In this document: positions 21,378 through 53,059 of the stretch, piece after piece
How positions within the stretch are numbered: position 1 is the first letter of the stretch
How the letters are laid out: each line of letters starts with the position of its first letter
Assembly (NCBI GenBank): GCA_031423235.1
Contig: JANPFC010000148.1
Location: 1-58,785, forward strand
Direction of reading: 5' to 3'
Origin: Chlamydiota bacterium
Lineage (GTDB): Bacteria; Chlamydiota; Chlamydiia; Chlamydiales; SM23-39
DNA: 58,785 nucleotides
Program-made: the position numbers and the translations under genes
The notes under the pieces: generated by a model
What the model was told of the DNA's origin: nothing
What the model saw: only the letters and a program-made list of their open reading frames with translations
Database searches by the model: none

Positions 21378-23456
21378 TTATTCTTCGCGGGTTTGCTGGA
21401 GCTTGGCTTCCAGCGCCGTGAGGAATTGGGCAAACGCCGAGGTGGCGCGGAGATTATCGAGCCAGTCGTCATCAAGAAGTTCATCAATGGACGGAAGCGA
21501 TCGGGCCCATAGCGCTTTGTAGATGAGTTCCATCCCTTCATGTGTGCGCCCAAGGATCGAATAGAGGCATGCGAGGGTGTAGTAGGCCGCTTCATTGCCG
21601 AGGCGTCCTGCTTTCGTAATTTTTATTTCAGCATCCATATAGAGCTGATTCATGAAGTCGCTATCGAGTGTGTGATGAGCGAGGTGAATGAGGCAAACTC
21701 CCCAATCAAGCCAAATTTGATCATTTTCTTCATCTGCGCGAATAGCTAGCCGAAAGAAATGGACCGCGCGTCTGTAGTATTCAGATTCGCTCGTGATATG
21801 GCCGAGTTGAGAGTAGGAGAGGGCCATCCGGTGGTGAATCCGGGGAAAGTCTGGATCGATCAGGAGCACGTGGGAGAAAATTTCAATCGCCCGTGTGTAG
21901 TGGGACTCTTCTTCAGTAAAGTCGCCGAGCCACTCAAGCGCGCAGGCGTACTCGTAGAGCCATTTCGGGTGGTGGAGGAGAGTATCTTTATGATTTTGAA
22001 GGAGCAGTTCAAAGAGGATGATCGATTGCTCAAGAGTGGGGAGATCATCGAGTATTTCGCTGAATTGGAGAAGGCAGCAGGCCGAATCGAACAGAAGGGC
22101 TGGGCAAGCTGGTTTCAGATCCATGGCTCTAGATAGGAACCGGTGGGCTCTCTCAATTAGGTCTTCATCATCTGTGAGTTCGGCATAGTGCATGTGGACA
22201 AGACCGAGGGCGTGCCATAGTTCTGGATCGCTTCTGTCGATCGAGAGTCCATATTGAAGCTTTTCAATGGCGAGCTCGTAATAATCGGCGTCTTCATAGT
22301 ATTTGCCGAAAGCGATGAGGCAGATTCCATAGGCGTGCCAAAGGTCTGGGTCGTCGGGGAACTGATCGGTCGCTTTAAGGACCTGGTGCTCTGCTTCGAC
22401 GATCAGGTCAAGGCGGGCTGTGATCATACCGAGTGTTGAAAGGCTCTCCACCCACTGGCTGATGATGACGGAGTCTTCTGAATCGAGCTGGGCTGCGCGC
22501 GCGCACTTTTCGATGCTGAGCCGGAGCGATTTCGCGTCGCTATTATGTCTTCCCGATTCGCCGAGGAGCTGTCCCCATCCGAGCCATACGTCCGGATCGC
22601 GGGGAGATATTTTAGAGGCGGCTGAATAGGCGTCGGAGGCTTTGGCCACATACCGCTCGTCGAGCGTATTGATGTAGAGCTGCGAATAGGCTTCTGCAAG
22701 GGACATCCATCCATCAAAATATTGAGGAGAGGCGTTCACTGCTTGCTGCAGGTACTCGATTGACTGGATATAGAGGCGCGACTCGTTGATGAGGAGCCCC
22801 ATTTCGAGGTAGGCTTTGCCGCAATCATTCCAAAATTCAGGAGAGGGCTTCTCTTGGTGGGTTTTGGAGGTCTGGAAGGAATCGATTGCGAGGCGGACGT
22901 CGAGGGCTTCTCCCGAGTGCTGAGCGATCTCAGACCAGGCAATTCCGTTGTCCCAGTGGAGTTCTGCAAGGAGTTCTTTCGGCTGGCCGGCGGAGTGGTC
23001 GAGCGCTTTTTGATATTTGTCTTTCGCTTCAATTAAAAAGTGGTGCTCTTCATGGAATCTGCCGAGTTGTAAGAGGACGTTGCCCCAAGCGACCCATGCA
23101 TCAAAAAAATTGGGTTGGAGCTGGGTGGCGATCTTAAAATTTTTACTTGCGAGGAGGAGCGCTTTCTCTTTCCCTTCTTCCGATCCATACTCGAAGAAGG
23201 CGAGGCCTTGGCGGTACCAGATTTGCGGGTTTTGGCCGTCTAGGTTCGACGCTGCCTCAAAACAGGAGAGGGCTCTTAAGTTGCCTTGCAATAGGGCCAT
23301 TTCCCCTTCGGCCAGATAGCGGTATGCCAACTCTTTTTTTTGCTCTTCCGGCAAATGGCCGCCCTCAATGGCCTCTCTCGGGAGAGAGGTTGAAACAGCT
23401 TTCCTGGGGAAAAACCGGGCGAAGATCCGTCTGAGGGGGGTGGCTTGCATGGTCAT
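21378..23456 (-). CDS. Tetratricopeptide-repeat protein
   Basis: Many ~34-aa helical repeats of the type P....W...G..L (PQIWYRQG, DAWVAWG, PEFWNDCG, PDVWLGWG, PDLWHAYG), ending YTLACLYS. Confidence 0.85.
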   Translation of the reverse strand: MTMQATPLRRIFARFFPRKAVSTSLPREAIEGGHLPEEQKKELAYRYLAEGEMALLQGNLRALSCFEAASNLDGQNPQIWYRQGLAFFEYGSEEGKEKALLLASKNFKIATQLQPNFFDAWVAWGNVLLQLGRFHEEHHFLIEAKDKYQKALDHSAGQPKELLAELHWDNGIAWSEIAQHSGEALDVRLAIDSFQTSKTHQEKPSPEFWNDCGKAYLEMGLLINESRLYIQSIEYLQQAVNASPQYFDGWMSLAEAYSQLYINTLDERYVAKASDAYSAASKISPRDPDVWLGWGQLLGESGRHNSDAKSLRLSIEKCARAAQLDSEDSVIISQWVESLSTLGMITARLDLIVEAEHQVLKATDQFPDDPDLWHAYGICLIAFGKYYEDADYYELAIEKLQYGLSIDRSDPELWHALGLVHMHYAELTDDEDLIERAHRFLSRAMDLKPACPALLFDSACCLLQFSEILDDLPTLEQSIILFELLLQNHKDTLLHHPKWLYEYACALEWLGDFTEEESHYTRAIEIFSHVLLIDPDFPRIHHRMALSYSQLGHITSESEYYRRAVHFFRLAIRADEENDQIWLDWGVCLIHLAHHTLDSDFMNQLYMDAEIKITKAGRLGNEAAYYTLACLYSILGRTHEGMELIYKALWARSLPSIDELLDDDWLDNLRATSAFAQFLTALEAKLQQTREE

Positions 23457-32300: not shown

Positions 32301-32907
32301 CAGGCGCCTTCAGCCGGATAAATAGCCGTTCGCCTGTTGGTTTTAGGACGATCTCTTGACCTGCTCCCATTGCAACGGTCCCTTTCGGAGCTTGGAGGCT
32401 GCCCTGATTATCCACTGTGTAGCCGAGGAGAATGACGTCTCCGTCCCAAGCATTGATTTGGCCGTAGTTGGTGATGGGACTGTTTGCGTCGCCCTTGAAG
32501 AGGATTTCTGAATTGGAAACAAAGTCTGCATCGAGAATATCCAAAGTGGAGGCGAGGAATGAGGCGGTGTTGATAACGGAATCTTTCCCAACGATTACGC
32601 CTGAGGGATTGATGAGATAGACTTTGCCATTGGCCTCGAGGGTTCCCATAAGCTGACTCATATGGCCGCCGGTCACACGGTTGAGCACCGCTGCATCGGA
32701 ACTCGGTTGGAGAAAGCGGGTGAGTTCGCCAGGACTGATCGAGAATTCATTCCAGTGGATCACAGCTTTGTCGCTTGCGGTGATATGGAGCGTGTTAGCG
32801 TCCATCTTTTGGAGAGTCACCGCTCCTGCTGCAACATTTGGATCTTGGGGATTGCCGAAGAGTGCAAAAGTGAACCCAAGTATAGGGATTGCAAGGAAGC
32901 GATTCAT
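29380..32907 (-). CDS. TpsA filamentous-hemagglutinin-like exoprotein
   Basis: Signal peptide; TPS domain I.W.EFSI, LNRVTG, G.L.ANG.VYLINPSG; GG.VELS motif; long Gly/Thr-rich beta-helix-like region; overlaps tpsB. Confidence 0.92.
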   Translation of the reverse strand: MNRFLAIPILGFTFALFGNPQDPNVAAGAVTLQKMDANTLHITASDKAVIHWNEFSISPGELTRFLQPSSDAAVLNRVTGGHMSQLMGTLEANGKVYLINPSGVIVGKDSVINTASFLASTLDILDADFVSNSEILFKGDANSPITNYGQINAWDGDVILLGYTVDNQGSLQAPKGTVAMGAGQEIVLKPTGERLFIRLKAPAEKADTGITHEGKIDALRAELKADGNAYSMAINYKGQTDATRIENRNGEVFLFAEEGFVSVSGPISAGNGEVRILGDQVVLRDGARIDVSGGGTVLVGGGYQGKNPEILNASITLIEKGASIHADGRDGGDGGKVIVWSDAGTGFHGEISAQGGPNGGDGGLVELSSKGLLEIDPEGKVNTAAPFGKGGTLLFDPCAVTIDETPADTGFVINVGIAPCNHDFDFGVNPTSNIKASTLTGALGTNNVCINASTTGMVGGTGSITVISPVIWFASNTLTLVATDAGSTIDIQAAVDVTAAFGVGVDAISVNAPTVNIGRSDHTLMALSSLSSNSGTISVNAATALNIYGGGAGFAGEIRGYGVAEVAVTGGGTILLQPSDSLGSSASIAAPGNISIGTMLTPMGAVSLGTTTALAISEIQRSAAAGNLTIYCADITMQGGANPSAKPTINGDNTLIRTGTLAMNGGSMAGNLIQGGASLNITTTTAGANSCFLEGGDIAASSSSFSSSNITLSVAGNFHAIGSGGASLMPELTGVNGNDLVNVTIGGDLLLQGNVELAGIASGFGPVTVTLTGQNGTGNCTLTGGTGDVAFAVIGTLFGGSTTCTIAGDYILDGGNSCAVIGSAFGSGTGNTTLTGKDYSIMGGPGSPIFLGFLGTGITVGGGSNLPPMGPLPNGIISITSTGPNGITLTGGPGNDMRALIGNSGIFDTDTIDFTLTNPSANLTLNGSPTAASGSGATIFTAGGGYIHDPVGNDIILAGTAGNPAVITVAGGGTGDILLIAGRTISLNEFSAITNDSTGGITLVTDNNNPSPPSVGTNAFFITEAGSAIDGYTTGMGPLRIFASTQSNVTVGGTLNGASFTKGPELVDTDQELWFVYFGDANSTFVNPLAPMFTLFYKGVIASGAFEKVFLTEFTPASTEALYSWRVHFAYNTISYIPTWVRFNQTAYVEAPADMSYEIAHEQYKNYRTLKLDQL

Positions 32908-42833: not shown

Positions 42834-42957
42834 AAGTTTTCAGCCGATTTTCGATTTAAAATTGGGGGGTAATATACCGAAGAATATTCGAGAATCGGGA
42901 AATTTTTTACCACCCGCGAACAAAGTTCGCTAGAGAACACAGAGCTCACAGAGCCAA

Positions 42958-43098
42958 TTAAACTTTTAGTCGACGTTTCCGAAGGCGCAATTCATATATT
43001 AAACAAGTCTCATAAGCTGATTCCAAAAGCCCTGGTCCAAGAGATCGATGAATGTCTATGGCTGCCCCAATGATTTTGCCTGTGAGAATATTTTCCTC
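42958..43098 (-). pseudogene. Internally deleted GxxExxY protein gene
   Basis: EENILTGKIIGAAIDIHRSLGPGLLESAYETCLIYEL is the family N-terminus (GLLESAY); stops after 46 aa, lacking the nuclease core; no start codon inside the repeats. Confidence 0.85.
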
Positions 43099-43166
43099 CT
43101 CTGTGAGCTCTGTGTTCTCTAGCGAACTTTGTTCGCGGGTGGTAAAAAATTTCCCGATTCTTGAAC

Positions 43167-43330
43167 TATACTGCGCTCGGTTTGAAACTTGGAATTTTAA
43201 ACGCGCCAAAACCGCTATAATCGACGATCGTAAACTGGTTCATATTTCTAATATTGACCAGTTTACGATCGTCGATTATAGCGAGTTTTCGCGCGGCTCA
43301 AAATCAAAGTTTCAAGCCGAGCGCAGTATA
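43167..43330. mobile_element. 164-bp palindromic MITE with TA target duplication, nested in the right arm of the composite element
   Basis: Ends TATACTGCGCTCGG / CCGAGCGCAGTATA; perfect 27-bp inner stem 43213-43239 / 43257-43283. Confidence 0.75.
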
Positions 43331-43414
43331 ACTTCGGTATAGTTGGATAGGTTCCAAGATGCTTTGCCAAAAAAATGATTGAACGGTATGCTCTTCCTTT
43401 TTTTTGGAGATCCC

Positions 43415-51634: not shown

Positions 51635-53059
51635 ATGGACGAGCAGGAATCCGAATCCCAGACTGGCCGCATCGACGATCTGCTGAAAGAAAAATTGGAA
51701 AAAGCTTTCCATACGCAGACATCCAAAGTCCGTTTGCACGATATTGCCAAAATCGCTTGCGAACACTCTCCGATCGACCTTGCCTACGCTGCCAGCCACC
51801 TCCCCCCCAATGTCCGTCCTGTCCTCTATGAGAATCTCCCGAATAGGGATGACAAGATCAAATTTTTAGTCAACACAGACAGCGACACCCGCCTGGCCCT
51901 TTTCCGCCAGCTCGACGATGTGGAATTGAAGAAAATTTTCGAGCGGATGCCGACTGATGAAGCGGTATGGGTCGTCGACGATATGCCGGAGCGGAGATTC
52001 CGCAGGCTGATGGATCTGATCGACTCCAAAAAAGCGAACCGGATTCGGGAGCTGAAAAAGCACGACCGGAAGAGCGCCGGAAGACTCATGACCTCCGAAT
52101 TCTTCGCTTTCAAGATGGACATGACGATCGGCGAGGCGGCAGCTTACATACGGGACAACCCCCGTATTGATTTTACTAAGGGTATCTTTATTTTAAATCA
52201 TACCGGCGAGCTTCAGGGCTTTGTCCCCGCCCGGAATATGATGATCAATCCCCACACGACCCCTCTAAGGCAGGTCATGCGTCCAGTTCTCCATAAAGTG
52301 ACTGTAGATGCGACCCGCGAAGAGGTGATCGACATTGTAGAGCGTTATAAAATTTCCTCACTTCCCGTCGTCGATATCGATAACGAGCTCATAGGGGTTG
52401 TTTCCCACGAGGATATCGTTGAGGCGATGGAAGATCTGGCGGATGAGACGATTGCCCGGATGGCGGGTACCAACGAAAAATTCACCTCCCACGATCCTAT
52501 CCTCCGTAGATTTCTGACCCGGGCTCCCTGGCTCCTGGTGACCCTTTTAGCTGGACTTATTAATGTCGGCGTTATGTCCTCCTTTCAGAAGCATGAAGGG
52601 GGCTTTTTGACCTTTGCCCTGTTTTTCGTCCCCCTTATTACGGGTATGTCTGGAAATATAGGTCTGCAGTGCAGTACGGTTCTTGTCCGAATTATGGCGG
52701 TCGGCGGTCTTTCGGGCGGCAGCCGCAAAGATATCATTGTGAAAGAACTCCTCAGCGGCCTCTTTACTGGATCGATCTTCGGCGTTGGATGCGGAATCAT
52801 CGTCTATTTCCTCGATTTCATCAGCGGCAATGCTCTCGGCTCAACAACTCCTGGCGCCGTTTCAGCTATTGTCAGCATTGGACTTATCGGCGGATGCTTT
52901 GCTGGAACGTTTCTTGGTGTATTTTCTCCTTTATTCTTCTCGCGAATCGGCGTTGATCCAGCAATTGCTGCAGGTCCAATCGTCACTGCGTTCAACGATT
53001 TTCTTTCGATGACCATCTATTTTGTCATCGCTTGGGGTGTTAGTAATTTTTTCTTTTAA
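51635..53059 (+). CDS. mgtE: Magnesium transporter MgtE
   Basis: AGRLMT CBS pair, RAPWL, FVPLI.GMSGN.G.Q, DPAIAAGPIVT..ND. Confidence 0.95.
   Translation: MDEQESESQTGRIDDLLKEKLEKAFHTQTSKVRLHDIAKIACEHSPIDLAYAASHLPPNVRPVLYENLPNRDDKIKFLVNTDSDTRLALFRQLDDVELKKIFERMPTDEAVWVVDDMPERRFRRLMDLIDSKKANRIRELKKHDRKSAGRLMTSEFFAFKMDMTIGEAAAYIRDNPRIDFTKGIFILNHTGELQGFVPARNMMINPHTTPLRQVMRPVLHKVTVDATREEVIDIVERYKISSLPVVDIDNELIGVVSHEDIVEAMEDLADETIARMAGTNEKFTSHDPILRRFLTRAPWLLVTLLAGLINVGVMSSFQKHEGGFLTFALFFVPLITGMSGNIGLQCSTVLVRIMAVGGLSGGSRKDIIVKELLSGLFTGSIFGVGCGIIVYFLDFISGNALGSTTPGAVSAIVSIGLIGGCFAGTFLGVFSPLFFSRIGVDPAIAAGPIVTAFNDFLSMTIYFVIAWGVSNFFF

Follow-up and report, generated by a model that had tools for sequence, protein, structure and literature searches.

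The 58,785-nt stretch of Chlamydiota bacterium DNA analysed here (the window, which is contig C148 of a 148-contig, 2.56-Mb genome labelled G000) carries at 42873-43341 a TA-flanked element in which the remnant of a GxxExxY gene lies between long inverted arms. With a probability of about 0.75, we read this feature as a decayed, non-autonomous miniature inverted-repeat transposable element (MITE) of an IS630-family insertion sequence (IS) which carries a GxxExxY cassette as a passenger, its arms being made of two layers: an outer IS630-type end and an inner arm of the cassette. By itself the feature is nothing unusual: a dead MITE of IS630 type that holds the remains of a gene and a nested MITE. 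The cassette architecture of its inner arms is conserved and apparently new to the literature, and for a large family of proteins whose function is unknown it provides a first concrete starting point. Throughout, G denotes a genome, C a contig (of G000 unless another genome is named) and L a fetched locus.

IS630-type ends of the window element

IS630/Tc1-mariner insertion sequences and their MITEs are TA-specific. The outer ~25 nt of the window arms (TA followed by TACCGAAG...GAGAATCGG) agree with IS630-family ends, and the motif TACC-N9-10-(T/C)NNAGAATCGG is common to the window arms and four other ends: i) a high-copy end of G000; ii) a transposase-side end; iii) the end of a remnant on C89; and iv) the IS630 ends of a Waddliaceae metagenome-assembled genome (MAG). 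In the long contigs of this MAG, a GxxExxY protein search found five loci with one ~1.7-kb unit, which opens with TA and TACCTCTTCAAATTGAAGAATCGG, finishes with ...GAGAGGTA and TA (a ...GGTA edge), and contains the GxxExxY cassette together with a convergent 345-aa open reading frame (ORF) matching NF033545 (IS630 family transposase) at 226.5 bits against a cut-off of 100. The window termini (TACCGAAGAATATTCGAGAATCGGG) and the Waddliaceae element have a common TACC...AGAATCGG frame.

Two kinds of repeated contig end were found in G000 itself. On the GxxExxY side, 19 contig ends carry an identical 117-140 nt (three more carry shorter pieces) made up of the GxxExxY C-terminus, the 3' arm and ...CGATTCTTGAACTTTTTTCGGTA followed by TA; in all 19 shown, TA comes after CGGTA and is succeeded by unique DNA. 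On the transposase side, 19 contig ends open with TA and TACCGTTCGTGATTCAAGAATCGG, continue through a promoter-like stretch and reach the first ~20-60 codons of a transposase, whose N-termini are 69-73% identical to that of the Waddliaceae transposase. The 140-nt length of the ends probably marks where the assembler stopped, one k-mer into the repeat. Moreover C89 holds a C-terminal remnant of the transposase, then an arm remnant, then the terminal inverted repeat (TIR), while on C53, C97, C126, C142 and C93, 72 nt of the transposase-side end are fused directly to the 5' arm, so that these are transposase-deleted copies. In the probable source run, summed contig depth was ~8.5 on the flanks versus 118-308 on the arms. 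A 1,770-nt contig from another public run leads from ~1.1 kb of non-window DNA into the 5' arm and the gene start, and continues with 245 nt at the window's deletion point, the other arm and a loose end which is the high-copy TIR. The simplest reading is that G000 has an IS630-family IS in ~19-20 copies, ordered TIR-transposase-cassette-TIR, the interior of which has been lost from the assembly through collapse; the two kinds of end would then belong to one element. A fold-back element with the ~20 identical GxxExxY-side ends as both its ends had also been considered, and was dropped after the 19 transposase-side ends were found.

Thus the initial annotation, which had seen in the arms a possibly undescribed mobile system and had itself named IS630 ends as what would speak against one, is not borne out on this point: the outer ~25 nt and the TA match IS630-family ends. 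Like MITEs of that family, the window element is TA-flanked, has its TIRs in common with an element encoding an NF033545 transposase, and belongs to many internally deleted, transposase-less copies with nested insertions at TA; the cognate transposase lies elsewhere and none lies inside, an IS630-family IS of this or a related genome has similar terminal repeats, and the copies carry internal deletions of differing extent. Unlike a typical IS630 MITE, its parent IS carries a passenger cassette with long inverted arms of its own, so that the inverted repeat of the MITE is 81 nt, of which only the outer third is transposon end.

Several observations in G000 concern IS630-type or TA-flanked elements beside the window family. 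At C97:~22190-22230 and C85:~32795-32830 lies a 36-nt mini-element in which two tips of the IS630 TIR adjoin back to back (TATACCG.AGCCGATTCT.GAATCAACTTCGGTATA); both places have lost most of a GxxExxY cassette. C39, at its whole length of 1788 nt, encodes a different IS630-family transposase in two overlapping minus-strand frames (903-1433 and 377-1003), with a ~85-nt direct repeat at the contig start and near 1440; it is possibly a repeat contig, either collapsed or circularised. Another palindromic, TA-flanked MITE, the third of its kind (TACCCGTTCCACCTCAAAC...), seen at C38:~51690-51870 and C69:1-60, splits a GxxExxY gene of another subtype, the second half of which opens contig C69.

Architecture, copies and internal deletion

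A repeat search of the window recovered inverted arms at 42887-42953 and 43099-43165 (67 nt, 99% complementary, 145 nt apart), within which lies the perfect 63-nt core noted initially. Without 43169-43330, the two arms align in register along 81 nt (42873-42953), differ at five positions and terminate in TATACCGAAG and CTTCGGTATA, as the initial annotation had described; the 9-nt periodicity and the gcgaac-aaa-gttcgc mini-hairpin that it reported are present as well, the hairpin insertion in both arms. The segment 43167-43330 is a near-complete palindrome (repeat pairs I2, 46 nt and 85%, and I3, 39 nt and 90%) bordered by TA at 43167-43168 and 43329-43330. Folded as RNA, the 294-nt element reached -145.8 kcal/mol versus -71.7 +/- 5.2 in 200 shuffled sequences, none of which folded as well (z -14.25), so the arm structure is not due to chance. 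The element sits between a gene for an MFS (major facilitator superfamily) transporter on one side and a class I methyltransferase gene on the other, outside any rRNA context. Its sole ORF is the GxxExxY remnant: the minus-strand ORF 42958-43209 matches PF13366 (PDDEXK_3; E 3.3e-10, 40.8 bits, cut-off 22) and TIGR04256 ('GxxExxY protein'; 42.8 bits, cut-off 35), above both cut-offs yet over profile positions 3-39 of 117 and 2-38 of 116 only. The parts of the element are the following (strand given where a feature has one):

42873-42874: TA, left copy of the putative target-site duplication, read from the sequence; related ends read CGGTA followed by TA
42875-42899: outer arm, IS630-type TIR of the right-end type (TACCGAAGAATATTCGAGAATCGGG), common to four other ends
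42909-42953, minus strand: cassette 3' arm, CTCTGTG-AG-CTCTGTG-TT-CTCT(18-nt mini-hairpin)GTGGT on the gene's strand
42958-43098, minus strand: GxxExxY gene remnant of 47 codons, ~37 N-terminal codons joined to the last 5 and the stop
43099-43143, minus strand: cassette 5' arm, ACCAC(mini-hairpin)AGAG-AA-CACAGAG-CT-CACAGAG on the gene's strand
43153-43166: inner part of the right outer TIR (CCCGATTCTTGAAC), its tip separated by the nested MITE; register with the left arm is restored without 43169-43330
43169-43328: nested palindromic MITE 'B', 160 nt (TACTGCGCTCGG...CCGAGCGCAGTA), TA on both sides
43331-43339: tip of the right outer TIR (ACTTCGGTA), read from the sequence
43340-43341: TA, right copy of the putative target-site duplication, read from the sequence

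The window 3' arm agrees with the arms that are canonical at other GxxExxY loci, ACCACAGAG-NN-CACAGAG-NN-CACAGAG. Presumably each window arm consists of three heptamer units, the outermost split by the 18-nt mini-hairpin insertion: ACCAC[CCGCGAACAAAGTTCGCT]AGAG. MITE 'B' occurs genome-wide at 36 loci (10 of at least 150 nt, 18 touching contig ends), and no parent IS was identified for it.

Counting the one in the window, the genome has 44 loci with arm-related sequence, 31 of them near contig ends. The element is thus multi-copy and, with no transposase inside, non-autonomous, the latter as the initial annotation had it, and both the further arm copies and the full-length genes in the same inverted repeats that it suggested looking for do exist. 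At C53:16650-17159, the same arms as in the window enclose an intact 122-codon GxxExxY gene, and contig C59 of the same-genus genome G003 has another full-length gene between the same inner arms. Compared with the C53 copy, the window copy is missing 222 nt, which joins codon ~37 to the last five codons; the junction lies near 42976/42977, and other copies part from the window at 42975-42980 (contig joints, loose ends). The window fragment is thus, judged by its sequence, an internal-deletion derivative of a full-length IR-GxxExxY-IR (IR, inverted repeat) unit, as had been proposed. Since the lost 222 nt include the catalytic PD-(D/E)XK core (D...ExK), which is present in C53, the window copy encodes no nuclease. 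Partial genes remain in the copies of the window, C19, C126, C142, C72 and C129, and larger deletions extend down to arms alone, as at C53:28602-28759, where the arms hold no gene.

Elsewhere in G000, at C75:2164-2511, ~65-nt arms built of CGCAGAG-type units enclose a GxxExxY gene that contains a single in-frame TAG, and C14:10226-10330 is a heavily deleted remnant of the C75 type.

Heptamer arms around GxxExxY genes

The inner layer was followed across phyla in the best 80 GxxExxY loci out of 185,579 species genomes, five of which are the Waddliaceae IS copies; the set spans Acidobacteriota, Chloroflexota, Planctomycetota, Bacteroidota, Chlamydiota, Cyanobacteriota, Nitrospirota, Verrucomicrobiota, a Methanothrix MAG and others. 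In every such arm, the inner ~45 nt consists of three CAC(A/G)GAG units at 8-10-nt spacing (CACAGAG at 9-nt spacing in the window), inverted on either side of the gene: the upstream arm reads ACCAC(A/G)GAG-NN-CAC(A/G)GAG-NN-CAC(A/G)GAG, and its reverse complement lies just 3' of the stop codon. Two or more sense units in the 200 nt upstream, together with two or more antisense units in the 200 nt downstream, were found at 57 of the 80 loci; nine have the upstream side only, ten the downstream side only and four neither. No unit pair falls within a gene, and in 93 of 104 cases the units are spaced by 8-10 nt. Furthermore, among the 76 loci with enough flank, the inverted match between upstream and downstream flanks had a median score of 41, versus 20 in cross-locus controls, and 30 of the 76 exceeded the 99th percentile of the controls. 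The initial expectation that GxxExxY genes generally lie within related inverted repeats is therefore supported.

The arms vary with the gene. All GxxExxY genes of G000 have inverted arms of their own, with ~9-nt periodic units of differing sequence. More generally, each paralogue within a genome has its own unit variant, identical in both arms (for example CACAGAG, CGCAAAG, CACAGAT, CACGAAT and CAGGAT in G041 and G042). On the protein tree the unit type changes 22 times among 50 rows (labels unshuffled), close relatives often differing; the six units of a cassette thus evolve in concert. The distribution of CACRGAG double units was examined in 41 genomes of the order: 17 of the 24 with a PF13366 match have them, versus none of the 17 without (Fisher p 2.5e-6, with kin non-independent). 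A reversed control pattern was lacking in 37 of these 41 genomes. The arrays often far outnumber the genes, with 138 arrays to two genes in G040 and 45 arrays to one gene in G030. The inner arms belong to the gene family and not to the IS; an IS630 relative in G002 stops right after its transposase and has no cassette. Such heptamer arrays may be flagged as a cause of assembly breaks.

Arms were also compared with each other in 74 distinct cassettes that had an ungapped arm match score of at least 30, among 100 examined. Mismatches fell in 136 of 2247 unit columns (6.1%) versus 197 of 496 spacer columns (39.7%), and had no G.U bias (85 G.U-type versus 70 A.C-type on the sense strand, p = 0.26). 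The conservation of units over spacers, the lack of that bias, the paralogue-specific units and their occurrence with the gene favour sequence-specific recognition over simple base pairing. Most likely the arms would serve as repeated sites at which a sequence-specific factor binds, possibly the GxxExxY protein.

Tentatively, GxxExxY genes with their inverted heptamer arrays can be pictured as a widespread, undescribed class of selfish cassettes, akin in design to the intervening sequences (IVS) of 23S rRNA and to REPIN-RAYT: the ~120-aa PD-(D/E)XK protein would recognise the 7-nt units, three on each side of the gene as well as those of gene-less hairpins, and the module would move between sites and families of transposable elements. 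We regard this wider picture as possible rather than probable. In REPIN-RAYT, a small gene encoding a Y1 (IS200/IS605-like) transposase lies between cognate inverted palindromic repeats. Likewise, the GxxExxY gene is flanked by cognate inverted repeats with a variant specific to each paralogue, and dispersed gene-less palindromic copies were found in gene-bearing genomes only. Unlike RAYT, the GxxExxY protein has a PD-(D/E)XK-like fold and is not a Y1 transposase; heptamer arrays stand in place of single REP (repetitive extragenic palindromic) hairpins; and the dispersed copies of resolved cases sit inside other TIR-bounded elements.

The inner arms might instead act mainly as RNA, a view which we consider unlikely: a ~25-30-bp stem would be cut by RNase III as in the 23S rRNA IVS, releasing or insulating the ORF loop, and the long inverted repeat of the window would be a relic of such a stem. 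According to PMC4990558, terminal inverted repeats of the Coxiella IVS form a 28-bp stem, three tandem GACAGAT precede its S23p ORF, RNase III cleaves in the stem at the first repeat, and the origin of the IVS is called unclear. In line with this view, the 5' arm of several loci is too near the start codon for an intervening promoter, so that it is probably transcribed; the window element folds into one long stem; and PF05635 (S23p / 23S_rRNA_IVP) genes outside rRNA have the same kind of arm. All 15 such PF05635 loci examined, from five genomes, lie between inverted arrays of short tandem repeats (L181-L197, G041-G045; units including TTGAGGG, GTCGAGG, TATCAGC and AGGGATG), and both PF13366 and PF05635 genes occur in all five (G041-G045). 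On the other hand, the even balance of G.U-type and A.C-type mismatches indicates no wobble bias, the excess of mismatches in spacers over units fits sequence recognition better than pairing, and pairing alone leaves the threefold heptamer and the cross-phyla conservation of CAC(A/G)GAG unexplained. Nor did Rfam lend support: the 14 cassette loci searched gave no rRNA match and one sub-threshold match, mir-4861 (35.1 bits versus a gathering score of 100), which we take as chance. The window copy, moreover, lies between two genes and outside rRNA.

The likeness to the IVS of Coxiella and Leptospira is nonetheless one of design: a small ORF lies within terminal inverted repeats with three tandem heptamers (GACAGAT in the Coxiella IVS, CACAGAG in the window cassette), and the gene decays while the arms are kept in both. 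Unlike the IVS, the window element sits outside rRNA between the transporter and methyltransferase genes, its ORF encodes a PD-(D/E)XK GxxExxY protein and not a four-helix-bundle S23p, and the GxxExxY module rides inside transposable elements. An inverted heptamer-array architecture is thus common to GxxExxY genes and the long-unexplained S23p-bearing 23S rRNA IVS, and this link turns the purpose of IVS elements and of GxxExxY proteins into a question for simple experiments. In the portion seen of a 2013 paper (PMC3936711), S23p-type genes are reported inserted in cas operons, with flanking repeats unmentioned. Limited full-text searches of the literature, which did not cover supplements, found no description of arms around GxxExxY genes, and the mention of GxxExxY in the text retrieved was incidental.

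Reading through the 5' arm accounts for a feature of annotated GxxExxY proteins, namely their low-complexity N-terminal extensions (TELTE..., TEDTE...-like). The longest ORFs at C53:16640-17070 and L054:1087-1563 begin at an ATG just 5' of the 5' arm and yield N-terminal peptides such as MNFSTTREQSSLENTELTE and MDFFTTELTEPTERR; in the window lineage there is no ATG between the arm and the conserved N-terminus.

Possible movement of the cassette and the alternatives

The passenger reading of the window element supposes the following steps: i) the outer ~25 nt would be recognised as an IS630-type TIR by a DDE transposase acting in trans, which would insert the element at TA and duplicate the TA, as expected of the family; ii) the inner ~45 nt is an arm that belongs to the cassette, its three CACAGAG units, at 9-nt spacing, facing opposite ways on the two sides of the gene; iii) the gene of the window copy lost its 222 nt, D...ExK core included; iv) the transposase-side end would have been replaced by a second arm of the right-end type, probably through recombination or conversion between the inverted arms of the cassette; and v) another TA-specific palindromic MITE would later have inserted into the right TIR. 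The arm-gene-arm cassette is itself a conserved module across phyla, found inside unrelated transposable elements.

Seven observations weigh against this reading: i) the link of the two kinds of end into one element rests on equal counts, the deletion derivatives, the C89 remnant and one foreign contig, the middle of which is unread; ii) the G000 assembly contains neither a full-length IS copy nor a full-length transposase gene; iii) the window copy bears two right-type ends and not a left and a right one, in which it also departs from a typical IS630 MITE; iv) none of 11 IS630 loci fetched from relatives contains a GxxExxY gene, so that the association of IS630 with the cassette is lineage-specific; v) no empty site for the window insertion was found by DNA search of 13 same-genus genomes or in the contigs of four public runs, so that the TA duplication is deduced from the flanks only; vi) the C90-type family of G000 has ~95-nt arms without IS630 ends and ~10 gene-less hairpin copies, so IS630 cannot account for all spread of such units; and vii) arms of this kind also surround S23p (PF05635) genes, whose products are no nucleases, and this weakens the idea that GxxExxY binds its own arms. 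As regards the empty site, the methyltransferase flank has one orthologue only among the 13 genomes (G008, 69% identity), with an upstream neighbour that is not the MFS gene, and no contig joint in the four runs skips 42873-43341. An exact 28-nt scan of metagenome contigs for the interior of the high-copy IS gave no match.

The cassette itself shows signs of movement. Five genomes of the same genus (G011, G012, G013, G002 and G003) lack the C90 cassette of G000 at the orthologous intergenic site, where their flanks lie 0-45 nt apart, and the gene-less hairpins with C90-type arms are scattered through G000. In the pairs L101/L127 and L066/L078, 82-85% identity covers the cassette region only and the flanks are unrelated. 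Its carriers include IS630 in two orientations (the Waddliaceae MAG and G000), an IS5-like transposase ORF (G034) and a 700-nt TIR element with 8-bp duplications. Since it lies within unrelated elements, the module itself would have to move somehow. In the resolved multi-copy cases (G000, G034, G040, L066/L078 and the Waddliaceae MAG), the boundaries are outer repeats of another element and not the heptamer arms, and a passenger entering transposable elements is therefore rated above a self-mobilising unit.

Less probable still than a mainly RNA role, in our estimate, is an autonomous IR-GxxExxY-IR unit, the ~120-aa PD-(D/E)XK protein of which would cut or otherwise act on its own arms, the window element being its internally deleted MITE, mobilised in trans by copies of full length. 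The protein has features expected of such an enzyme: in intact genes (63 sequences) D66 and E76 are invariant and K78 is present in at least 90%, and its AlphaFold2 (AF2) model (pLDDT 92.3) has a PD-(D/E)XK-like fold nearest to the solved folds of lambda exonuclease, Cas4 and Hjc, with weak Foldseek E-values (best 0.0095). A PDB sequence search with the family profile returned no match at E <= 1, and a 2012 survey of PD-(D/E)XK proteins lists the function of the family as 'Unknown'. The paralogue-specific units, conserved far above their spacers, the arrays confined to gene-bearing genomes and often outnumbering genes (G040, G030), the C90 cassette missing in five relatives, the dispersed C90-type hairpins and the range of carriers would all suit such a unit. 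Several lines of evidence are set against it: i) the ends and putative TA duplication of the window family are of IS630 type and an IS630 transposase is present in ~19 copies, so GxxExxY activity is unnecessary for the window element; ii) the outer-repeat boundaries of the resolved multi-copy cases are not heptamer arms; iii) a nuclease alone cannot explain strand transfer or target duplications; iv) PF05635 genes have analogous arms though they are not nucleases; and v) the structural matches are weak. The initial annotation had left GxxExxY as either mobiliser or cargo of the repeats; at the level of the element, with its IS630-type ends, it is cargo and not mobiliser.

That the locus is an assembly chimera of repeats with a nested structure that is not real is highly improbable: the assembly is broken at these repeats, as the 31 of 44 arm loci near contig ends attest, and short contigs alone cover the element interior in the public run, but in the probable source run a 27-kb contig extends from the left flank to 42915 and a 5-kb contig from 43301 into the right flank, both without a difference, short contigs tile 42947-43126 and 43185-43333, and the same architecture recurs on C19, C126, C142 and C53.

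Some of the carriers deserve description in their own right. In two Bacteroidota MAGs (L066:957-1654 and L078:957-1653), the ~700-nt element has GCTACTCTTT... terminal inverted repeats and 8-bp direct duplications (TGCCCCCG, CCCGGGGA), and contains a GxxExxY gene and no transposase. In G034, PF13366 matches number 64 and are for the most part C-terminal fragments identical to each other; of 13 copies examined, at least nine lie inside the IS5-like transposase ORF, and at C30:108800-109830 of that genome (L045) tandem 343-nt units hold a truncated GxxExxY cassette each. In the single-contig genome G040 (C1, L209-L217), which has two GxxExxY genes and 138 heptamer double units, most double units sit in a ~290-nt dispersed element with CATACGCATCAACTTAAGG inverted repeats at its edges. 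At the centre of this element a pyrimidine array precedes a purine array, the reverse of the order in gene-bearing cassettes, and its CTTAGGTTGATGCGTATG motif also borders the C90-type arms of G000.

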